Source of the DNA: Massalongia carnosa
Lineage: Eukaryota
Direction: 5' to 3'
Assembly (NCBI GenBank): GCA_965645245.1
Contig: OZ287077.1
Location: forward strand, 1,364,001-1,428,000
Length of the DNA: 64,000 nt
The notes below the pieces were generated by a model. That model saw only the letters and a list, made by a program, of their open reading frames with translations, was not told the DNA's origin and searched no databases. The position numbers were made by a program, and so were the translations under genes. Within the stretch, counting starts at the first letter, position 1. Each line of letters starts with the position of its first letter. Shown piece after piece: positions 2,395 through 56,952 of the stretch.

Positions 2395-5300
2395 CTAAGC
2401 CTCATCGGGTCCATCTACGGTTTCCGTAGATGGTCTGACGTTATCGATCGTCTGATCCATCCCTGTGAGGTCCTCTGGCGCCTTCGGTTTTCGAGGATGT
2501 TCTCTATGATATTGCAGAACCTTTTCGATAGACTTTCTGAAGTCGGTCCATGGTTGCCAAGGTGGGTCAGCGTTCTATTCATCCCAATTTCCAATATATG
2601 TAGCCTTATACTGTACCCCAAATTTCCTTGTCTCTCGACAGTCCACTATCTCTAAGATTTCCCACTCTTCATGTGTTGCCTCCTCATCGTTCTCGGTGAT
2701 CAAGACAGGTGGGCCGGGAGGCAGTACTTGCCCTGGGAACGGACTGGACGGAGCGAGATGCAACTTCCATGCATGAAATATTGGGGTGAGTCCCACATTC
2801 TTTAAATGCTGTGGTATGTCAAGCTCATATGCCTTGTTATCGATTATCCTAAAAATTTTCCAGGGACCAACGTTTTTAAACCCGAGGGAACGACTTGGAC
2901 GCTCTGATGCGAAATGTTTAGCATTAACGTACACTAAATCGCCCACTTTGTATTCTGGGTGCAGTTAACGATCTTTGTTAGCATGTCGTGTTTGTTCTTC
3001 CTGGGCCCATGTTAGCTGATTTCTTAACCATTCTCGCATTGCTTCCTGGCGAGCGACTATTTTGTCAGCATGAAGTATCTCGGCTTTTCCCTTTTCTTCA
3101 TATGTTCCTGGAGGCTCTATTCCCGAACGAGGATGAAAGCCGTGATCTGCGAAGAATGGTGTCATTCCTGTCGAAACGTTAACATGATTGTTAACGGCGA
3201 ACTCGGCATCTGAAAGATAGTCGACCCAGTTGTCCTGAGCATAATTGATGTATGATCGAAGGTAGTTCTTCATTACTTTATTTGCATTCTCAGTTTGACC
3301 ATTCGTTTCTGGATGATGCGCTGAAGAGAACTTTATCTTTACTCCGTATCTTTCACAAATTCTTTTCCACAGACGAGCAGTCAGCTGACTGCCTCGATCG
3401 TTTGCCGTTGACAATGGAAAGCCATACGAGGAGAAGAGTCGTCGAGACATGGCGTCCATTAATTCGTCGGTGGAGAGTGACGTAAGCGGTTCGTATAATC
3501 GTCTTTTTGTTAGACGGTCTACTATCACTAATATGTGTTGATACACTCTATTCCTTCGCCGACATTCCGGCAAAAACTCCACAAAATCTAAAGAGACGTC
3601 TGTCCATTTTCTGTTCGGTATGGGTAGAGGATTCAATAAGCCCTGTTTCTTGACATTATATGATTTTGACCTTCGACAAATGGAGCAGTTCACTGCGTAT
3701 CTTTTGCAGTGATCCTTCATGTCGAACCAGAAGGAGTTTTCCATCAGTGACTGATACATGCTTTTATATCCCGGGTGTCCTTGCAGAGGAGGTTCGTGAT
3801 GTTTCTGCAACAGGCATAATTGAAGGGGTTCATGATCTGGGACATACAGCCTTTCTTTGACATACAGTCTTTCATCTTTCACTTTGAGATCTCCCATGGC
3901 TAATTTGATCCCTTTCTTTATAAGATGCGATGGAAGCTTGCGAAGTTCTCGTGTTTTGGCAGCGATTATGTCTTGAACTACTTCATCTTTTTCATAAGCT
4001 TCTTCTAGAGGTTTCGCTGCTGGATCTTCTTCCGAATCGTCGCCTAGTTCTTTCACCGGATTTTCATTTAAAATCTGACTCTGAGCCTCTTCATCGTCCT
4101 CGATGGCCTGAGGTTCCTCAGCTTCTTCGTCAGTGTCATTTGTTCTTGTGTTTGCACAGAAGATCACTGATAAAGCCTTCTTTACGTCATCGTCTAGTTG
4201 ATGCTCCTGTAGCAATGTCTGGAATTGATGTTGTTGTCGAGAGTCGTCAAACCCTTTTGGAAGATCTTGAGAACGTCGAGTAAGTGTGTCCGGCTTTTCG
4301 CCTTGTCTGCCCGGTCGATACATGATTTTGAAATTGAACTCCGAAAGGAATTCAGCCCATCGGGCTTGTCTGCGGTTCAGTTGCTTTGTCGTCATAAAGT
4401 GTTCCAGGTTTTTATGATCAGTATAAACTTTTATTGGCTGGTCAGGTGCAGCACTTGCTGCCTCGGGCCGCCAGACCTCGAAGCTCTTTATGATAGCGAG
4501 GAGTTCCTTATCATATATCATGTAATTACATTCGGCCGGTGTCATCTTCTTGGAGAAATATGCTACCGGTTTGAGCACTCCGTCATGCATCTGAGATAAG
4601 ACTCCGGCAGTGACGAAATCCGAAGAGTCTGTTTCTATCCATGTCTCTAGAGAAGGATCATAGTGCGCTAACACTGGTGCAGTAGTGAAGGCCTCTTTCA
4701 AATCTTCGAAAGCTTTTTTACAATCTTCGGTCCAGATGAACACGTTATATCGGGTTCTCTTCTTGCCCGACTTGGTCGTTATTTGTTTCCCTTTTGTTAA
4801 TTCCGTCAGAGACCTTGTACGCTGAGAGAGCTTTGATATGAATCGTCGATAGAAGTTTGCAAAGCCTAAAAAGCTTGCACGTCCTTCACGGACTCCGGAG
4901 TTTCCCATTTCAAAATCGCTTCAATCTTCTCGGAATCCATTTGTTTCGGTGGTGACTATAAGTCCGAGGTACTTTACTTTAGTCACCGAGAATTCACATT
5001 TGTCAATGTCAACTTGGAGTCCTCGTTCCCCCAAGCGTTTAAGAACCTTCAAGGCGTGATCTGAATGTTCTTCCTCATTATCACTGTAGATCAAGACGTC
5101 ATCCAGATAAGCAGTACAAAAGACGTCTAAATATTCCCGAACAGAATTATTTATATAACTCTGCAAAGTCCCTGGAGCATTGCATAAACCGAAAGGCATG
5201 ACCAGATATTCGAACTGGCCATATCTTGTGTTAAAAGCGGTAAGCCATTCATGTCCTTCTTTTACTCGAAGACGATTGAATGCCGTAATAACGTCTAGTT

Positions 5301-50288: not shown

Positions 50289-51257
50289 TCAGATATCCAG
50301 TAGTTGTGGCGAGTTTCCAATCTTGCCTGTGCTCCTGTATGTCAATGACGCATTGATCATTACACCTCCTCTAGCATCTCCCCCCCAGACTCGACCCCAC
50401 AAGATCCCTAGCAGTCCATGCCATAACAACATTGCAATGTTGACCCATAGGTGGGGAGATATCAAGTTCCGCAAAAGCTTTAAGTCGTCGTGCGTACAAA
50501 GCCTCTCAAAGGCCTCTTGACACCTGTCCCAAAATACATATTCTCTACCATATCCTGCATGAACATGACCGAAAATATGCACCTGCGGACGAACCTTCCA
50601 TGTTTCTCTAAGCAAGAATTTGCAGCCCAGTCCGCCAGGGAGATCCAGGTGATGCCTAGGGGGTGAATGTGTTACCAAAACATCTGTCTCGCGCGGAATT
50701 GTTCCAGTCCACGCGTCATCGTTCCGCTGATACTGAAAAGCAAACTCCCTACCTCCACATTCTGGGATCTGGGGAGCGCCATAGAAATTCAGTTGGCGGC
50801 CCCCTTGACTTGGGAATTGCAACCGAACGGTGGAATGCTGCAGATAGTGGACATCACCCCACCGAATTGATTTGCCTGCATCCTCTTCATGCCGCGATCT
50901 CGGATCAAAGAAGCTGTCATGATTGCCAGCTATAGCTATCTTATGAGGATGAGGCAGGGAGGACAGCCAATCAACATGCTCCTGAACCTCAGCAATCGTG
51001 CCAAGGTTGGTGAGATCACCGGCATGGATCAAGACGTCCCCTATAGGAATAGAATCAACCTTGTAGGTGTGCGTATCGGAAATGCAAACGAGGCGGATGC
51101 GTAAGGATGGTGGAGGGGCATGGAATGCAGGGCCACGGAGGAACAGAAGAAGAGCGTAAAGATATTGTACGAAAGTTCTGATAGGGTAAAAGATAATCTG
51201 ATGAAGGAGAGATGGAGGCTCAAAGGGTGAATTGGGTGCTTGTAGAATTGAGGGCAT
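50289..51257 (-). CDS. Calcineurin-like metallophosphoesterase (MPPED-like)
   Basis: SDTH, HAGDLT, AGNHD, THSPP, FGHVH motifs. Confidence 0.88.
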   Translation of the reverse strand: MPSILQAPNSPFEPPSLLHQIIFYPIRTFVQYLYALLLFLRGPAFHAPPPSLRIRLVCISDTHTYKVDSIPIGDVLIHAGDLTNLGTIAEVQEHVDWLSSLPHPHKIAIAGNHDSFFDPRSRHEEDAGKSIRWGDVHYLQHSTVRLQFPSQGGRQLNFYGAPQIPECGGREFAFQYQRNDDAWTGTIPRETDVLVTHSPPRHHLDLPGGLGCKFLLRETWKVRPQVHIFGHVHAGYGREYVFWDRCQEAFERLCTHDDLKLLRNLISPHLWVNIAMLLWHGLLGILWGRVWGGDARGGVMINASLTYRSTGKIGNSPQLLDI

Positions 51258-51353
51258 AGTTGCGTGTATGGGACACGCAGCATCCACAAACTGAGAACTA
51301 ATATAGTGTTTGTGTAATGATTCTACCCCCAACTCTAGATACTTTAAAGAGTA

Positions 51354-51431
51354 CAACCATCATCGGATAGAGTTATTCAGAGAAAGATGCAACCATCATC
51401 GGATAGAGTTATTCAGAGAAAGATGCAACCA
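51354..51431. repeat. Perfect 36-bp tandem duplication
   Basis: CAACCATCATCGGATAGAGTTATTCAGAGAAAGATG twice, plus CAACCA. Confidence 0.9.
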
Positions 51432-52480
51432 AACCGTACCGGGTTTATTCAAACTATGAGGTAAATAGAGCAGACGCTCATGAAAGCCCAAGCTACCAGT
51501 GTTATTTACACACAGCTTACTAACTCTACATCCTCAAAAGTGGTTAACTATTGAAGTTTGACTACCATAGCACATGCATAGCTAGCCGAAAGCAGCCAAA
51601 GTAACTGTGCCATGCACCCATGCACGCGGGTGACAAAATAAATTTTACACCAAAATTTCTACCTCACCAAAATCATCAGACTTTTCATCCATTATTGTAA
51701 CGTCTATTCAGTTCATTTGATGATGTTTGAATTTCATTTGCTACAACTAATAACCAGTCATTCTACCTTCATCATCAATCACCGCTTGCAGTCGTTTGGG
51801 TATCGTGGCCACCTGTTCGTTGACAAATCGCTGAGAAACATGACTCCATCCCTCATAAATCTTGCCTCAGTACCTCAGACCTGCCTTGCCCTCACCACAG
51901 CTAAACCTATTTAGATTAGTATATTATTTGTCTAAAACTAAGCTAGTTTAGTGAATAGATTAACTATTTTGGGTTAAGACTCTGTTTAGCTTACTACGCA
52001 TGCTTCGGGCGGCAGGTCTGAGTTCAAAACTCTGTAATTTTGCCAGGTTCGCGTTATTTTGGTGACAACACATGTAAATTTCGTGCTTAAGATAAAAAAT
52101 CATCGTTTTTCACGTTCAGGACAGGATCAACGACAACACATGATAATTGTTATATAATACTTCATTGTCGCCGCTACTTTCAGATATGCTTTATTCAATG
52201 TCCTAAAATTTAAACGCCCTGCATGCGTTGCGCGAATATCTTCCTCGTCGAGCAACATCGACTCAAATTGTTTCTCAAATCCCGACAACAGCACGACAAT
52301 ATCAAACTGAGTCTTGCTCTTCAAATCAACGGTCGGCGCTTATATTCATCATATTGCCTTGACGGATCAAGTTATTGTAGTCCTTCAGGGCTCCGAACTC
52401 GAAAACCTAGTCGTCGTCCTTGCTAGCGTGCTTTTTGACAGTTCGAAACTCGATCAAGATTGTAGCGCTATTACATCAAT

Positions 52481-53655
52481 ATGAACGACGCGATACAGAT
52501 GTTGACTCTTGAGAAGATCGAGAGCGTTGTTGATCGTTATTTCGGGTTTCGTCTAAAGAGGGCGCAGGTGGATGCACTTCATCATCTGTTGTGCGATAAG
52601 ATGGATTTGATTTTGATAGCAAAAACAGGCTTCGGAAAAAGCATACTATTTCAAGCTGCTCCTTTGATGTTTTCGCCTTGCAAGTCAGTGTGGATAATCA
52701 TGCCTTTGATTGCACTGGAAGAAGAGCAATGTGAAAAACTTACTCTCATCGACAACTGTCGACCCATAGTGTTGAACGGAGATAATAACAACTCGTCTAC
52801 CTTGACTGCTATTCGTCATAGTCGTACACTCATGATAAGTCGAATAAATCTGTTTGTATACAAGTCAGCGCTCTAATTGTTACTTACAGTATTCACGAGT
52901 CCAGAAATAGCAACGTCGAAATTGTTTAACGAAATGGTTCTCAGTCATTCATCTTATTTCTCAAATCTTTGTCTGTTGGCTATCGACGGGCTGCATCTGG
53001 TATCTGAATGGCGTGATTTTCGACCTGAATACTTCAATCTTGGGGTGCTTCGTGTTACGACCCAAGTAGGGATAGGACATCCTACTATGGATCGAACAGT
53101 TAAACCGTTCTAGGTTTAAACCCAGCGGAAAGCTCACCTGGCTCACTTGTGAGCAGGGCGAGCTAGAGAGTTCACCGAGCTCACGGGCGAGCAGGGCGAG
53201 CAGATGCTCCCCGGGCTCACGGGCGAGCAGAGTGAGCAAGGACTATATAGGTAGCGAAGATTCCCTTATGGAAACTTCGTGTTCAACCTTCCCTACCATC
53301 TTAACTTCATAGTTACAATCTACTGCATTGACGATTGTTCCCATCTATGTGAAGCTATTCCCGTTGCACCTGACGAACACTACAGACCGCTCTATATAAG
53401 ACCAAACACCCCTCGCGCCTGAGGCACCGAAGAAGACGCGTAGCACTTCGAACCCGATTACCAGATGGAATACCATTTTTAGGAGTTTCTGCAACGTTGG
53501 ATGAAGAAACCTTGAACTGCGTCAGAAGTCAATGTGGGTTTCATGATGAAACTCGACTTATCAAAACACCTATTGATCGACTAGAGATTTACATTCAAGT
53601 CAGTTCTTTGTTGAAATCACAAGCTGAAATGCTTGATCTTCAACAGTTGTGCTTT
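52481..53655 (+). pseudogene. RecQ-like SF2 helicase, N-terminal lobe only
   Basis: AKTGFGKS, MPLIALEEEQ, TSPE, AIDGLH (DExH mutated), WRDFRPEY, VSATLD; interrupted by a solo LTR; truncated near 53655. Confidence 0.85.
53053..53445. repeat. Solo LTR (393 bp) in the helicase gene
   Basis: TGTTACG...CGTAGCA; 5-bp TSD CTTCG; removal rejoins GVLR|TRLPDGIPFLGVSAT; internal GGGCGAGCA repeats. Confidence 0.88.
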
Positions 53656-54787
53656 CGTCTTTCATAACCGGCTTCAACGGATGATACTTCGTTTGAAGGC
53701 GATCCAGTCTTTTCAACACAGGCATGGATGTAACCCGAGGAAACTTGAAGTCGCTGAATTTAGCAGTGTAAAAGGCTTGAATTGCCGACTCGACATGATG
53801 AATTTGAATCTTCGTCCACATTTCATCAGTTTCAAGTAAGCCGCTTAGAAAAGTGGTCGATGCTTACCTGTGCGTCTATGTCATTTAGTTACAATCTTAG
53901 TGCGAGTCCTATGGCGGACAAAGGATAATTCTCAGGTTGCCACATATTCTGTCTCAAGACCGTTACCCCAAGGCCCTGTCCTTCAAATATCAAAGCGGTC
54001 GTAATTGATCGAAACTCTCTTACGTCACCGATTCTCTCGCCTCTTCGGCCTTCCGCAAAAACAAAATTATCTTAGGTTACAACAGTAGTTGAAGCTCGCC
54101 CTATCGTCCTTATTTTTCGCCTCGCTTCGTCACTTAGGCTTGACATGCGCCGTTGAAGAGTGGAATACGACATTGACAAGCCAAGTTCACATAAAGTATC
54201 CAGAACTCTGCGCCTGGCGCCACCCTGATAGATATAAAGGCCCATGATGCTCTGAAATTTTTTTGACGTATTCGGGCGCAACATGTGACAAAAGAGGGAC
54301 AATATAGTTGACTGCCGCCCGACCGGAATAGCGCGCTGAGGATGAGTGGACTCGTCTCGGTGGGCATCACTACAGACGCGCTGAATAGGATCTAGCCATC
54401 GTGGCGCCTTACTCATGATGACCGATGCGGCACCCTTGAAGCTATTTAAGGTGCCCAGCTCGTCAGTCTCCGACGGTGGGTGGAAAACCCCAAATGCGGC
54501 CGTTGCAACCAGTGCATTGAGCTCCGCTCGAAGGGCCTCCGCGACCCAGGTCCAACCCTGTTCATAAAGGATGATTGCCGCTCGATCCTAGCTTTGCCGT
54601 ACATAGTCTAGCTATAGAGATGACAAGTTAATTATGAATCAATGACCGCTTGCAGCTGTCATTCTCTTACTATTTTCGTGACTCAACTAGACGTCCATTT
54701 TAGACTGAGATCCGGGCCTTTTGTCTAACTTGCATCGAGGTTAAAAAGCGCGCTCATTGTTCCTTGATGGCGTTCTACAGCGCGCAT
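53645..54787 (-). pseudogene. Putative Academ-type (DUF6589-like) transposase, N-terminal part
   Basis: LRAELNALV...FG, KAPRW, FQSIMGLY...RRVLDTLCELGLSMSY, (*)DNFVF, PLKPVMKDEST; has introns and stops. Family assignment is from motif recall only. Confidence 0.6.
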
Positions 54788-55097
54788 AGTCTGTCGTGTA
54801 GTTGGAAAACACATAAATAACACACATAGAAAACGATGGGATGGTATAACACAATATTTTACGCTTAATCGCGTAAGGCGGCTTGGTATTTTAATATTTT
54901 CTCATTTATAAGGCAAACCTGCCTGTATTATTGAGTTTTGCCCTCAGACGTGCTTGTACAGCGAACTTAGTAAGCAAAGTCTAACTATAAAAAGTTAGAC
55001 TTGTAGGCTAAATAAGTTAGCGCCGAGTTAAGCGGAAAAGGTTAATAAAGGCGCAGGCTGAGCCACAGCACGTCTGAGGTACTTCGTACTGAGGCAA

Positions 55098-56004
55098 CAT
55101 AAATCAACTCTTTAGTAGTAGCATCGTCCCAATGAGGATATTTTCGAAGATGTTGTTTGACAGGCTGCCAGCAATTCTCAATCGGAGACAGATCAGGAGA
55201 TGAGGCACAATTGAAATAATGATTCAACTCATTTTTCTCCTTCCAGGTGCGTACGATATTCGGTTTGCCTAGTCCATGACCTGAATCACCATCTTCTTCT
55301 AAAACGAACCTCTGACCCGTTTGCAGCCATGGAAGAACAATCGGATTCAAAATCTGCTCGATGTAGGCCTTTTGACTCATCTTTCCGTTGGTGTTACCCG
55401 AAACATTGTAAAAAAAGATATCTGATTTAAAACTGTGTCCCATCGCAGCCCAGCAATGATGACGCTTTTTGTCCTTCTCGTCTGGTTCATTCTCTTCTTG
55501 AATACAATTCTGACAATATCTTTCTCCAGGTTTTCGTATGATTCGTAGTTTCCTTTGAGGACCCCAGCCGAAATGAACCTCATCGCTGAATCGTACATGA
55601 TGCCAATCCTCCGGCTCAGGATATTTCTCAAGCATTACAGTTGCCCAACTGACTCGATGCGCTGCTGTTTTCTTATTGACCCAGCCCTTTCTACAAGAAA
55701 CACACTTATGATAATCCATCGTACCCATCGCTCTTTGAACAGTGCGACCACTACAATCCAAGCCCACTTCGTAGCCCAATTGTTCCCAAGTTAAAGCTCG
55801 TGCTTCAATGCCTTCGGTCTCAAGAATACGCTCCATTTCTCGTATTTGTTGAGGTGTTATGATAGATTTTCGACCCCGCTGCTCTGATCTATCAGGATTA
55901 TTATGATGTCTTCGTGAAGATTCGCTGCGTAGATATTTGTAGCCTTGTTGTCTTGAAACATTGAACACACGAAAAACGTCTTCCTTATAATAAGATATTC
56001 CCAT
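55098..56004 (-). pseudogene. DD37E transposase, main part (C-terminus at 51747-51861)
   Basis: FSDEVHF; EEDGDSGH...SPDLSPIE with 37 residues between D and E. Confidence 0.9.
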
Positions 56005-56206
56005 TGCTTCGCAAAATTCTACAGCTCCTTGAATTTTTGCCTTATTAGGTGTAGGAACTTCGCTCCAGGCCCTGTAATTTCAAGAAGTGGAGTGGTGGAT
56101 CGATTCATGATTATTTAATATGATGGTGGATGAAAAGTCTGATGATTTTGGTGGGTAGAAATTTTGGTGTAAATTTTATTTTGTCACCCGCGTGCCATGT
56201 AAGTAC

Positions 56207-56741
56207 CACGCGGTGCGAAAAAAAGTTGACACACCGAAATAAGATTCCCCACTAAATCTTCAATACATGAATTACTTCTATGATTTTTTTGAAAGGTAAA
56301 AAACGAACAGTTACTGCTTAGACTCATGATTTAAATTTAGTTGGTTGACTTTAACGATCGCACAGAAAGAATAGTTTTGTAATTGTGTTTGAGGAGTAAA
56401 TTAATAAAATCCTGATTTAGGTTGCCTCATTACCTCAGACGTGCTGTGGCACAGCCTTCGCCTGCACTAACCTCTTTCGGTTAACTCAGCGCTAACTTAT
56501 CTAGCCTATATGCCTATCCCTTTAGAGTTAGGCTTTGCTTACTAACTTCGTTGTGCCGACACGAAGCATACGTAGTAAGCTAAATAGAATCTTATCCTAA
56601 AACAGTTAAACATTTAACTAATTGACTTAGCTTCTGACTAATTATATACTAATCCAAAAATGCTTAGCTGTGGCGAGGGCAAGGCAGGTCTGAGGTACTG
56701 AGGCAAGATTTAGGTGTGTCAACTTTTTTTCGCACCGCGTG
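56207..56741. mobile_element. Non-autonomous TIR element with CACG...CGTG ends; outer boundary ambiguous (inverted repeat extends to 56198/56750)
   Basis: Perfect inverted repeat CACGCGGTGCGAAAAAAAGTTGACACACC at both ends; AT-rich non-coding interior. Confidence 0.75.
56422..56706. mobile_element. 285-bp MITE derived from the helicase-encoding element, in opposite orientation
   Basis: Same TTGCCTCA(G/T)TACCTCAGAC termini; its halves align to 54955-55097 and 51862-52008; 8-bp TSD GATTTAGG (56414-21 / 56707-14). Confidence 0.92.
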
Positions 56742-56952
56742 GTACTTACAGTAGTTATGGCAGACCCATGTCACTCCTCCACCAATTAATCCTGCATGAT
56801 GACGTCTCGTACTGTAAACGTCTATGTCAGTCTTGCCTGCCAACTTCAGGTTTGAGCTTGGTGGGGTTGATGATAATGCGTACATGAACAGTTTTAAAAT
56901 ATCCAAACCTTTTCTTTTGCAAAGGCCCTCAAGTTTATAATAATTAGTGATC

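Follow-up and report, generated by a model that had tools for sequence, protein, structure and literature searches.

The 64,000-nucleotide stretch of Massalongia carnosa DNA analysed here (assembly GCA_965645245.1, contig OZ287077.1, positions 1,364,001 to 1,428,000 of the forward strand; hereafter the window) contains, at 51862-55097, an element that is very probably best explained, taken as a whole, as a dead, non-autonomous deletion derivative of a helicase-bearing cut-and-paste transposon of the Academ superfamily. Academ is among the least studied of the DNA transposon superfamilies. The element belongs to it and works like AcademH, but departs from the target site duplication (TSD) length reported for AcademH, which makes it, in our view, an AcademH-like variant. 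In itself, the copy in the window is an ordinary dead derivative; the value of the find lies in its strict 8-bp TSD, in a young and intact sister family (family A) and in a branch (subfamily B2) that bears a dioxygenase gene.

The element lies where an earlier note on this DNA had placed it, with the 8-mer CATAAATC at both flanks (51854-51861 and 55098-55105, both on the plus strand). It begins with TTGCCTCAGTACCTCAGAC, and its far end is the reverse complement. The left terminal inverted repeat (TIR) is 23 bp long (51862-51884, plus strand) and is common to families A and B and to MITEs with the same ends; the right TIR (55068-55097, minus strand) includes a 7-bp insertion found in one other copy, L146, which has its own TSD. 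Short TIRs of about 23 bp are thus present at both ends, as the note had claimed, but shortness does not hold as a trait of the lineage, since the TIRs of the young family A are 95-96 bp. Further inward, an inverted motif at 52012-52057 (plus strand, GCAGGTCTGAG...) has its partner at 54908-54953, in a layout equal to that of family A, and is likely a transposase binding site.

The length of the TSD can be read from the sequence into which the element inserted. This is a Tc1/mariner element (51622-56195, minus strand; TIRs at 51622-51691 and 56127-56195), whose DDE_3 open reading frame is broken by the insertion. In six of the seven other copies of this Tc1 element the flanks are equal and the 8-mer stands alone at the empty site (with one mismatch in two of the six), and in the seventh the left flank differs. 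A single 8-mer at the empty Tc1 site fixes the TSD at 8 bp. The Tc1/mariner family has seven close copies (92-98%) and, further away at 73%, a group of copies that all score identically, which suggests that it too had a recent burst. Adjoining the Tc1 element is a gene for a calcineurin-like metallophosphoesterase (50289-51359, minus strand), and a perfect 36-bp tandem duplication occupies 51354-51425.

Inside the element are remnants of two convergent genes. On the plus strand, a RecQ-like helicase is represented by exon 1 (52481-52834, with motif I, TGFGKS, identified by Pfam and by alignment to the sister helicase), by an intron with its donor altered to ATAAGT (52835-52889, at the position of a 58-nt intron in family A), and by exon 2 in two parts (52890-53052 and 53451-53645), the first of which has the DExH box as DGLH (DELH in the parent). 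The two parts are separated by a 393-bp solo LTR of Ty3/Gypsy type (53053-53445, TG...CA) flanked by a 5-bp TSD, CTTCG, at 53048-53052 and 53446-53450; a two-LTR relative has its genes in the order gag, protease, RT, RNase H and integrase, which is the Ty3/Gypsy order. The second part is truncated near amino acid 239 by a central deletion. On the minus strand, a transposase is represented by exon 1 (53868-54589, amino acids 127-365; the first catalytic D is kept, in DNF, but the frame has stop codons), a 58-nt intron with donor GTAAGC (53810-53867, at the position of a 63-nt intron in family A) and part of exon 2 (53646-53809, about amino acids 366-423). This remnant has lost the catalytic E together with the H motif and the second D, so the window copy cannot be autonomous. 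The helicase remnant matches Pfam DEAD at E 8e-7 and aligns with amino acids 1-239 of the intact sister protein at 57-59% identity; against the intact sister transposase, the minus-strand remnant is 48-53% identical over amino acids 127-423, and its match to DUF6589 is weak (E 0.004, under the Pfam cut-off).

The anatomy proposed in the earlier note, a plus-strand SF2/RecQ-like helicase remnant fused to a minus-strand, intron-containing remnant by a central deletion near 53650, is borne out by these alignments and by the matching intron position, and the junction now maps to 53645/53646. The note had missed the solo LTR and a second deletion at 54589/54591, which removed the N-terminus of the transposase and ends, at the start of the right subterminal region (54591-55067), at the margin of the GC palindrome bordering the dioxygenase gene in B2. 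The order of events at the locus was the Tc1 element, then the Academ element into its open reading frame, then a Gypsy-type insertion later reduced to the solo LTR.

An intact relative is present in the same genome, where a DUF6589 search gave 54 matches. Family A is a 6.0-kb element of which 24 copies were sampled, with pairwise identities of 98.0-100% (mostly above 99.5%), and it encodes a 705-amino acid helicase and a convergent 871-amino acid transposase. The helicase frames are present in all 24 sampled copies, and all four exon frames are open in ten of them, so that full-length copies have been recovered and the helicase is not the one-off captured cargo that the note had allowed for. 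The family A helicase matches Pfam DEAD and Helicase_C, and its best PDB matches are RecQ and WRN (E 1e-16); its transposase matches DUF6589 at E 3e-62. An 898-amino acid frame found in two copies was considered as the true transposase and set aside, as it reads through the 63-nt intron with a mutated acceptor. Two family A copies at different sites, L045 and L046, have in common a mutated acceptor of the transposase intron and a helicase frameshift, so a damaged copy was mobilised. Substitutions among the copies are skewed towards C>T, with CpA mildly in excess and no strong RIP pattern. No empty allele was seen when the contigs of four runs were compared with one family A copy. Judged by its sequences, family A is a very recent burst of a probably still competent element.

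The ends of the window element are repeated widely in the genome. Its terminal 19-mer has 299 matches with at most one mismatch, and the reversed control has none, so the ends are not chance. Among the fetched loci, which are part of these 299 ends, 67 end pairings could be scored, cross-pairs of nested copies included; 44 of the 67 have an exact 8-bp TSD and 47 have one within a single mismatch (an earlier count was 38 of 59). Exact TSDs of any other length from 4 to 15 bp are absent from the 67, including lengths of 9 or 10. The remaining 20 pairings have no TSD, and many of these, though not all, are cross-pairs of nested copies. From the flanks we could rule out both a 10-bp TSD with fixed A...T ends and a 9-bp TSD with shifted termini. 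The 8-bp TSD put forward in the note is thus real, on the evidence of the empty Tc1 sites as well as of these pairings. Across 46 sites there is no strong target consensus, only a slight tendency for the TSD to begin with G and end with C. Some pairs of copies (L099/L123, L115/L126, L113/L129 and L049/L114) have one or both flanks in common, or lie in one and the same repeated target at positions a single base apart, and copy L112 has inverted flanks; such arrangements point to recombination between copies, duplication or reuse of the same sites.

Both junctions of the window element recur together at 12 places (loci merged by genomic place), so the double-deleted form was itself mobile and multiplied to at least 12 sites. 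Shorter derivatives occur too, as MITEs of 216-844 bp with the same ends. One of them, of 285 bp, lies in the window at 56422-56706 (minus strand) and consists of two B2 ends with the 8-bp TSD GATTTAGG. The note had given the element its own MITE; derived MITEs do exist, but this one matches the B2 ends more closely (92-96%) than it matches the window element (83-84%). It is nested in another MITE, at 56198-56750, which has 43-bp TIRs and stands directly beside the right end of the Tc1 element.

The assignment to Academ rests on the transposase of the intact sister. Its motifs DNFD, WILPGLGLWH and DRLLE align with DNwD, wlvpflgffH and DealE of the published Academ profile (supplement of PMC5751038), and residues D298/D301, H490 and D707/E711 fit profile positions 3-6, 214-223 and 450-454. 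This comparison was made by eye and unscored, against parts 1, 9, 10, 11 and 19 of 94 of that source, and takes in the order and rough spacing of three motif blocks, with the second-D block outside it. Together with the intact sister genes, the three blocks uphold the convergent layout of helicase and Academ-type transposase claimed in the note, and the Pfam check that it proposed, which gave only a weak DUF6589 match in the remnant, gives a strong one in the sister. A structural model of exon 2, built without exon 1, has four transposases as its closest folds, with middling Z scores: the P-element transposase (Z 8.1, borderline for a common fold by the scale of the tool; rmsd 5.0, 242 aligned residues), Hermes (Z 6.3, rmsd 8.0, 242 aligned), ISCth4 (Z 4.4) and Transib (Z 4.2). 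At E values up to 0.001 the transposase has relatives in 1,189 clusters, and the nearest named homologs (58%) are from Icmadophila and Teloschistes, which are lichen-forming ascomycetes; it is by these named homologs that the host is taken to be an ascomycete as well. A metagenome scan found one locus in four assemblies (L160-L163) with a transposase 31% identical and an intron at the equal position; a convergent helicase C-terminus there is weak (E 6e-4), towards its 5' part the helicase gives way to AT-rich sequence, and a search of the locus for TIRs found none. Scans of prokaryote genomes and viral contigs for relatives gave no match.

That the element instead belongs to another superfamily with 8-bp TSDs, such as hAT or Zisupton, or to KolobokH, and has merely borrowed its helicase, is highly improbable. 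The TSD length agrees with hAT and Hermes is a distant fold match, yet Pfam returned no hAT family match for the transposase frame up to E 1. DUF6589 is the sole Pfam match on the 898-amino acid frame, the Academ motif blocks match in order and spacing, and the TSDs are not TTAA and have no fixed sequence.

The closest parents of the window element are the longer copies of subfamily B2, to which it is 83-92% identical over the coding parts. All B2 copies are damaged and belong to helicase-only or transposase-only deletion types, each present at several sites (L117, L131 and L132 as against L041, L101, L114 and L133), and the two types could once have complemented each other in trans. B2 has a third gene, missed in the note's account of a helicase and a transposase. 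It lies between the transposase start and the right end and matches PhyH (E 4e-5), with HxD, the distal H and R intact in one copy (L154), and it occurs inside copies bounded by TIRs and TSDs at several sites. No complete three-gene copy was found among the B2 copies, and the length of about 8.6 kb is the sum of pieces. The protein is about 800 amino acids long; its N-terminus is long and helical, and it has a conserved CxC...CxxH motif, neither of which has a family match; an Atlas search with the N-terminus gave no usable match. It belongs to a family of at least 135 long homologs with Pezizomycotina names. Among 50 of these, H566, D568, H664 and R675/R676 are invariant or nearly so, as are the putative zinc ligands, and Pfam finds PhyH in 20 and TET/JBP in none. 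A model of homolog P0158 (pLDDT 85) is nearest in fold to YbiU (Z 20.1, rmsd 3.2, 279 aligned), followed by GIG2 (Z 18.8), with NgTET1 at Z 9.1. On these sequence and model comparisons, the third gene is predicted to encode a PhyH/YbiU-like 2OG-Fe(II) dioxygenase.

The dioxygenase gene is bracketed by direct repeats of a 20-bp GC palindrome, and another copy of the palindrome lies between helicase and transposase. A Helitron reading of the palindrome was dropped, as CTAG follows only some copies. AAAGCCGCGCNGCGCGGATT has 96 matches with at most one mismatch in G000, and the palindrome, with one change, is also found inside the open reading frame of a multicopy Copia-type retrotransposon (L176-L179, near 4920-5020), which may reflect a shared host binding site or chance. 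In the window subfamily the second deletion spans the dioxygenase region, so that its direct ancestor may or may not have carried the gene.

It is somewhat unlikely that the dioxygenase does nothing for the transposon and is there as a host gene captured passively or as an insertion nested in one subfamily. Such an origin would suit the recent amplification of family A without the gene, the flanking direct repeats, as an inserted module could have, the spread of homologs across Pezizomycotina and a fold nearest to enzymes outside DNA metabolism. Against it, the genome holds no intact dioxygenase outside Academ elements among 20 matches, and across 50 homologs neither the catalytic nor the putative zinc ligands vary. 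The gene also accompanies two divergent subfamilies: in another copy, whose left end and helicase start are like those of family A, the adjoining dioxygenase is 72% identical and in the same orientation, which suggests that family A has lost the gene. On the other side, of four distant dioxygenase remnants in this genome, the two that were checked have no Academ gene within 5 kb.

Other assemblies bear on the same question. Protein records give the longest contig size and no gene context, and five sizes (7,859, 10,167, 11,642, 13,583 and 28,673 bases) are common to 36 transposase and 119 dioxygenase records; under a null made by shifting the sizes by 1 to 1,000, the mean was 0.2 matches and the maximum 3. 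All five records fall within the top 13 dioxygenase matches, and two are also matched by helicase homologs. Going by these equal contig sizes, the dioxygenase and Academ genes seem to lie on the same contig in each of five other assemblies. These five dioxygenases fall together with that of the present genome in one clade of 16 rows with support 96/97, in a tree of 35 of 39 rows from which four homologs without the anchor motif were left out. We conclude that the dioxygenase is most likely stable cargo of the lineage, and quite probably that this is a three-gene Academ lineage of RecQ helicase, transposase and dioxygenase.

Taken together, the TIRs, TSDs and motifs imply that a DDE transposase moves the element by cut and paste and cuts the target with a stagger of 8 nt. 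A transposase supplied in trans by an intact relative would bind the shared 22-bp ends and the inner inverted motifs, excise the element and insert it with the 8-nt stagger that leaves the 8-bp TSD, and the RecQ-like helicase may assist transposition or the repair of intermediates. The lineage would exist in two forms, the two-gene family A of 6.0 kb and the three-gene B2 of about 8.6 kb with the dioxygenase upstream of the transposase; in the window subfamily two internal deletions removed the catalytic core of both genes, after which the deleted form multiplied. By analogy to TET-carrying transposons (PMC12730594), the dioxygenase might counter silencing, a role that we would sooner doubt than accept because family A amplified without the gene and the closest folds are not nucleic-acid enzymes. 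The fullest form of this proposal, a lichen-type ascomycete Academ lineage with 8-bp TSDs and an ancestral three-gene layout, in which a zinc-motif dioxygenase would act on DNA or chromatin against silencing, is rather improbable. Were it true, it would parallel the TET-carrying transposons with an unrelated enzyme family.

How far the lineage is new depends on the record. In the literature searched, which had Repbase Reports and most subscription papers outside its reach, we found neither an Academ family described with 8-bp TSDs nor a dioxygenase described as carried by Academ, and no published test of the helicase role in such elements. The comparison also took in PMC8290104; the consulted portions of PMC9970103, PMC12210899 and PMC4522978 hold nothing relevant, and the available text of one lichen TE preprint does not mention Academ. 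The ascomycete host, which the earlier note had set against the mainly animal and non-ascomycete origin of described families, is not new in itself: AcademH is stated to occur in Basidiomycota, Ascomycota and Mucoromycota (PMC10799480), and Academ is listed at low copy in most fungal taxa, Ascomycota included (Table 1 of PMC5751038). What is new here is the dioxygenase in the closest parent subfamily. In line with the note, AcademH is reported to have TSDs of 9 or 10 bp, as against 3 or 4 bp in AcademX, and this difference has been linked to which accessory enzyme is present, a helicase or a nuclease (PMC10045372). The rule becomes wider with a family that has a helicase and yet a strict 8-bp TSD, and the ten near-identical copies with open frames offer a natural, probably still competent element for testing helicase function.

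As compared through later summaries (PMC10045372, PMC10799480), AcademH resembles the present lineage in its Academ-type DDE transposase and RecQ-like helicase between TIRs, its fungal host and its non-autonomous derivatives. It differs in its TSD of 9 or 10 bp against a strict 8 bp, in being described as 'low-copy' against a high copy number and very recent burst, and in that one branch here has a third gene. That this is nonetheless an ordinary AcademH family, new in its host alone and with 8-bp TSDs that Repbase or the primary paper already covers, appears unlikely, though far from negligibly so. Architecture and motifs fit AcademH, the group is stated in Ascomycota (PMC10799480), and TSD length variants are common within superfamilies, for example hAT5, hAT6 and hAT7 (PMC12730594); however, the AcademH author's own summary gives 9 or 10 bp (PMC10045372), lengths seen in none of the 67 pairings, and we found no paper linking Academ with a dioxygenase. 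KolobokH (PMC9587614) is likewise a fungal DNA transposon encoding a RecQ helicase, but has a TTAA 4-bp TSD in place of the variable 8-bp TSDs seen here.

The AcademH-like variant also invites comparison with fungal DNA transposons that carry TET genes (PMC12730594), whose extra gene likewise encodes a 2OG-Fe(II) dioxygenase bearing the HxD...H triad. By its Z scores of 20.1 to YbiU and 9.1 to NgTET1, the present enzyme is PhyH/YbiU-like and not TET-like. Academ is not among the 11 lineages of that study, whose main text, in the portion available, does not contain the words phytanoyl, AlkB or Academ, and with the present gene fungal transposons may have recruited an oxygenase of a second kind. 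YbiU and GIG2 (DUF1479), with the PhyH-type dioxygenases, are the closest solved folds to the catalytic domain, from which the cargo protein of about 800 amino acids is set apart by its long helical N-terminus and CxC...CxxH; its place in the transposon gives a genomic context to an unannotated fungal protein family of 800-900 amino acids.
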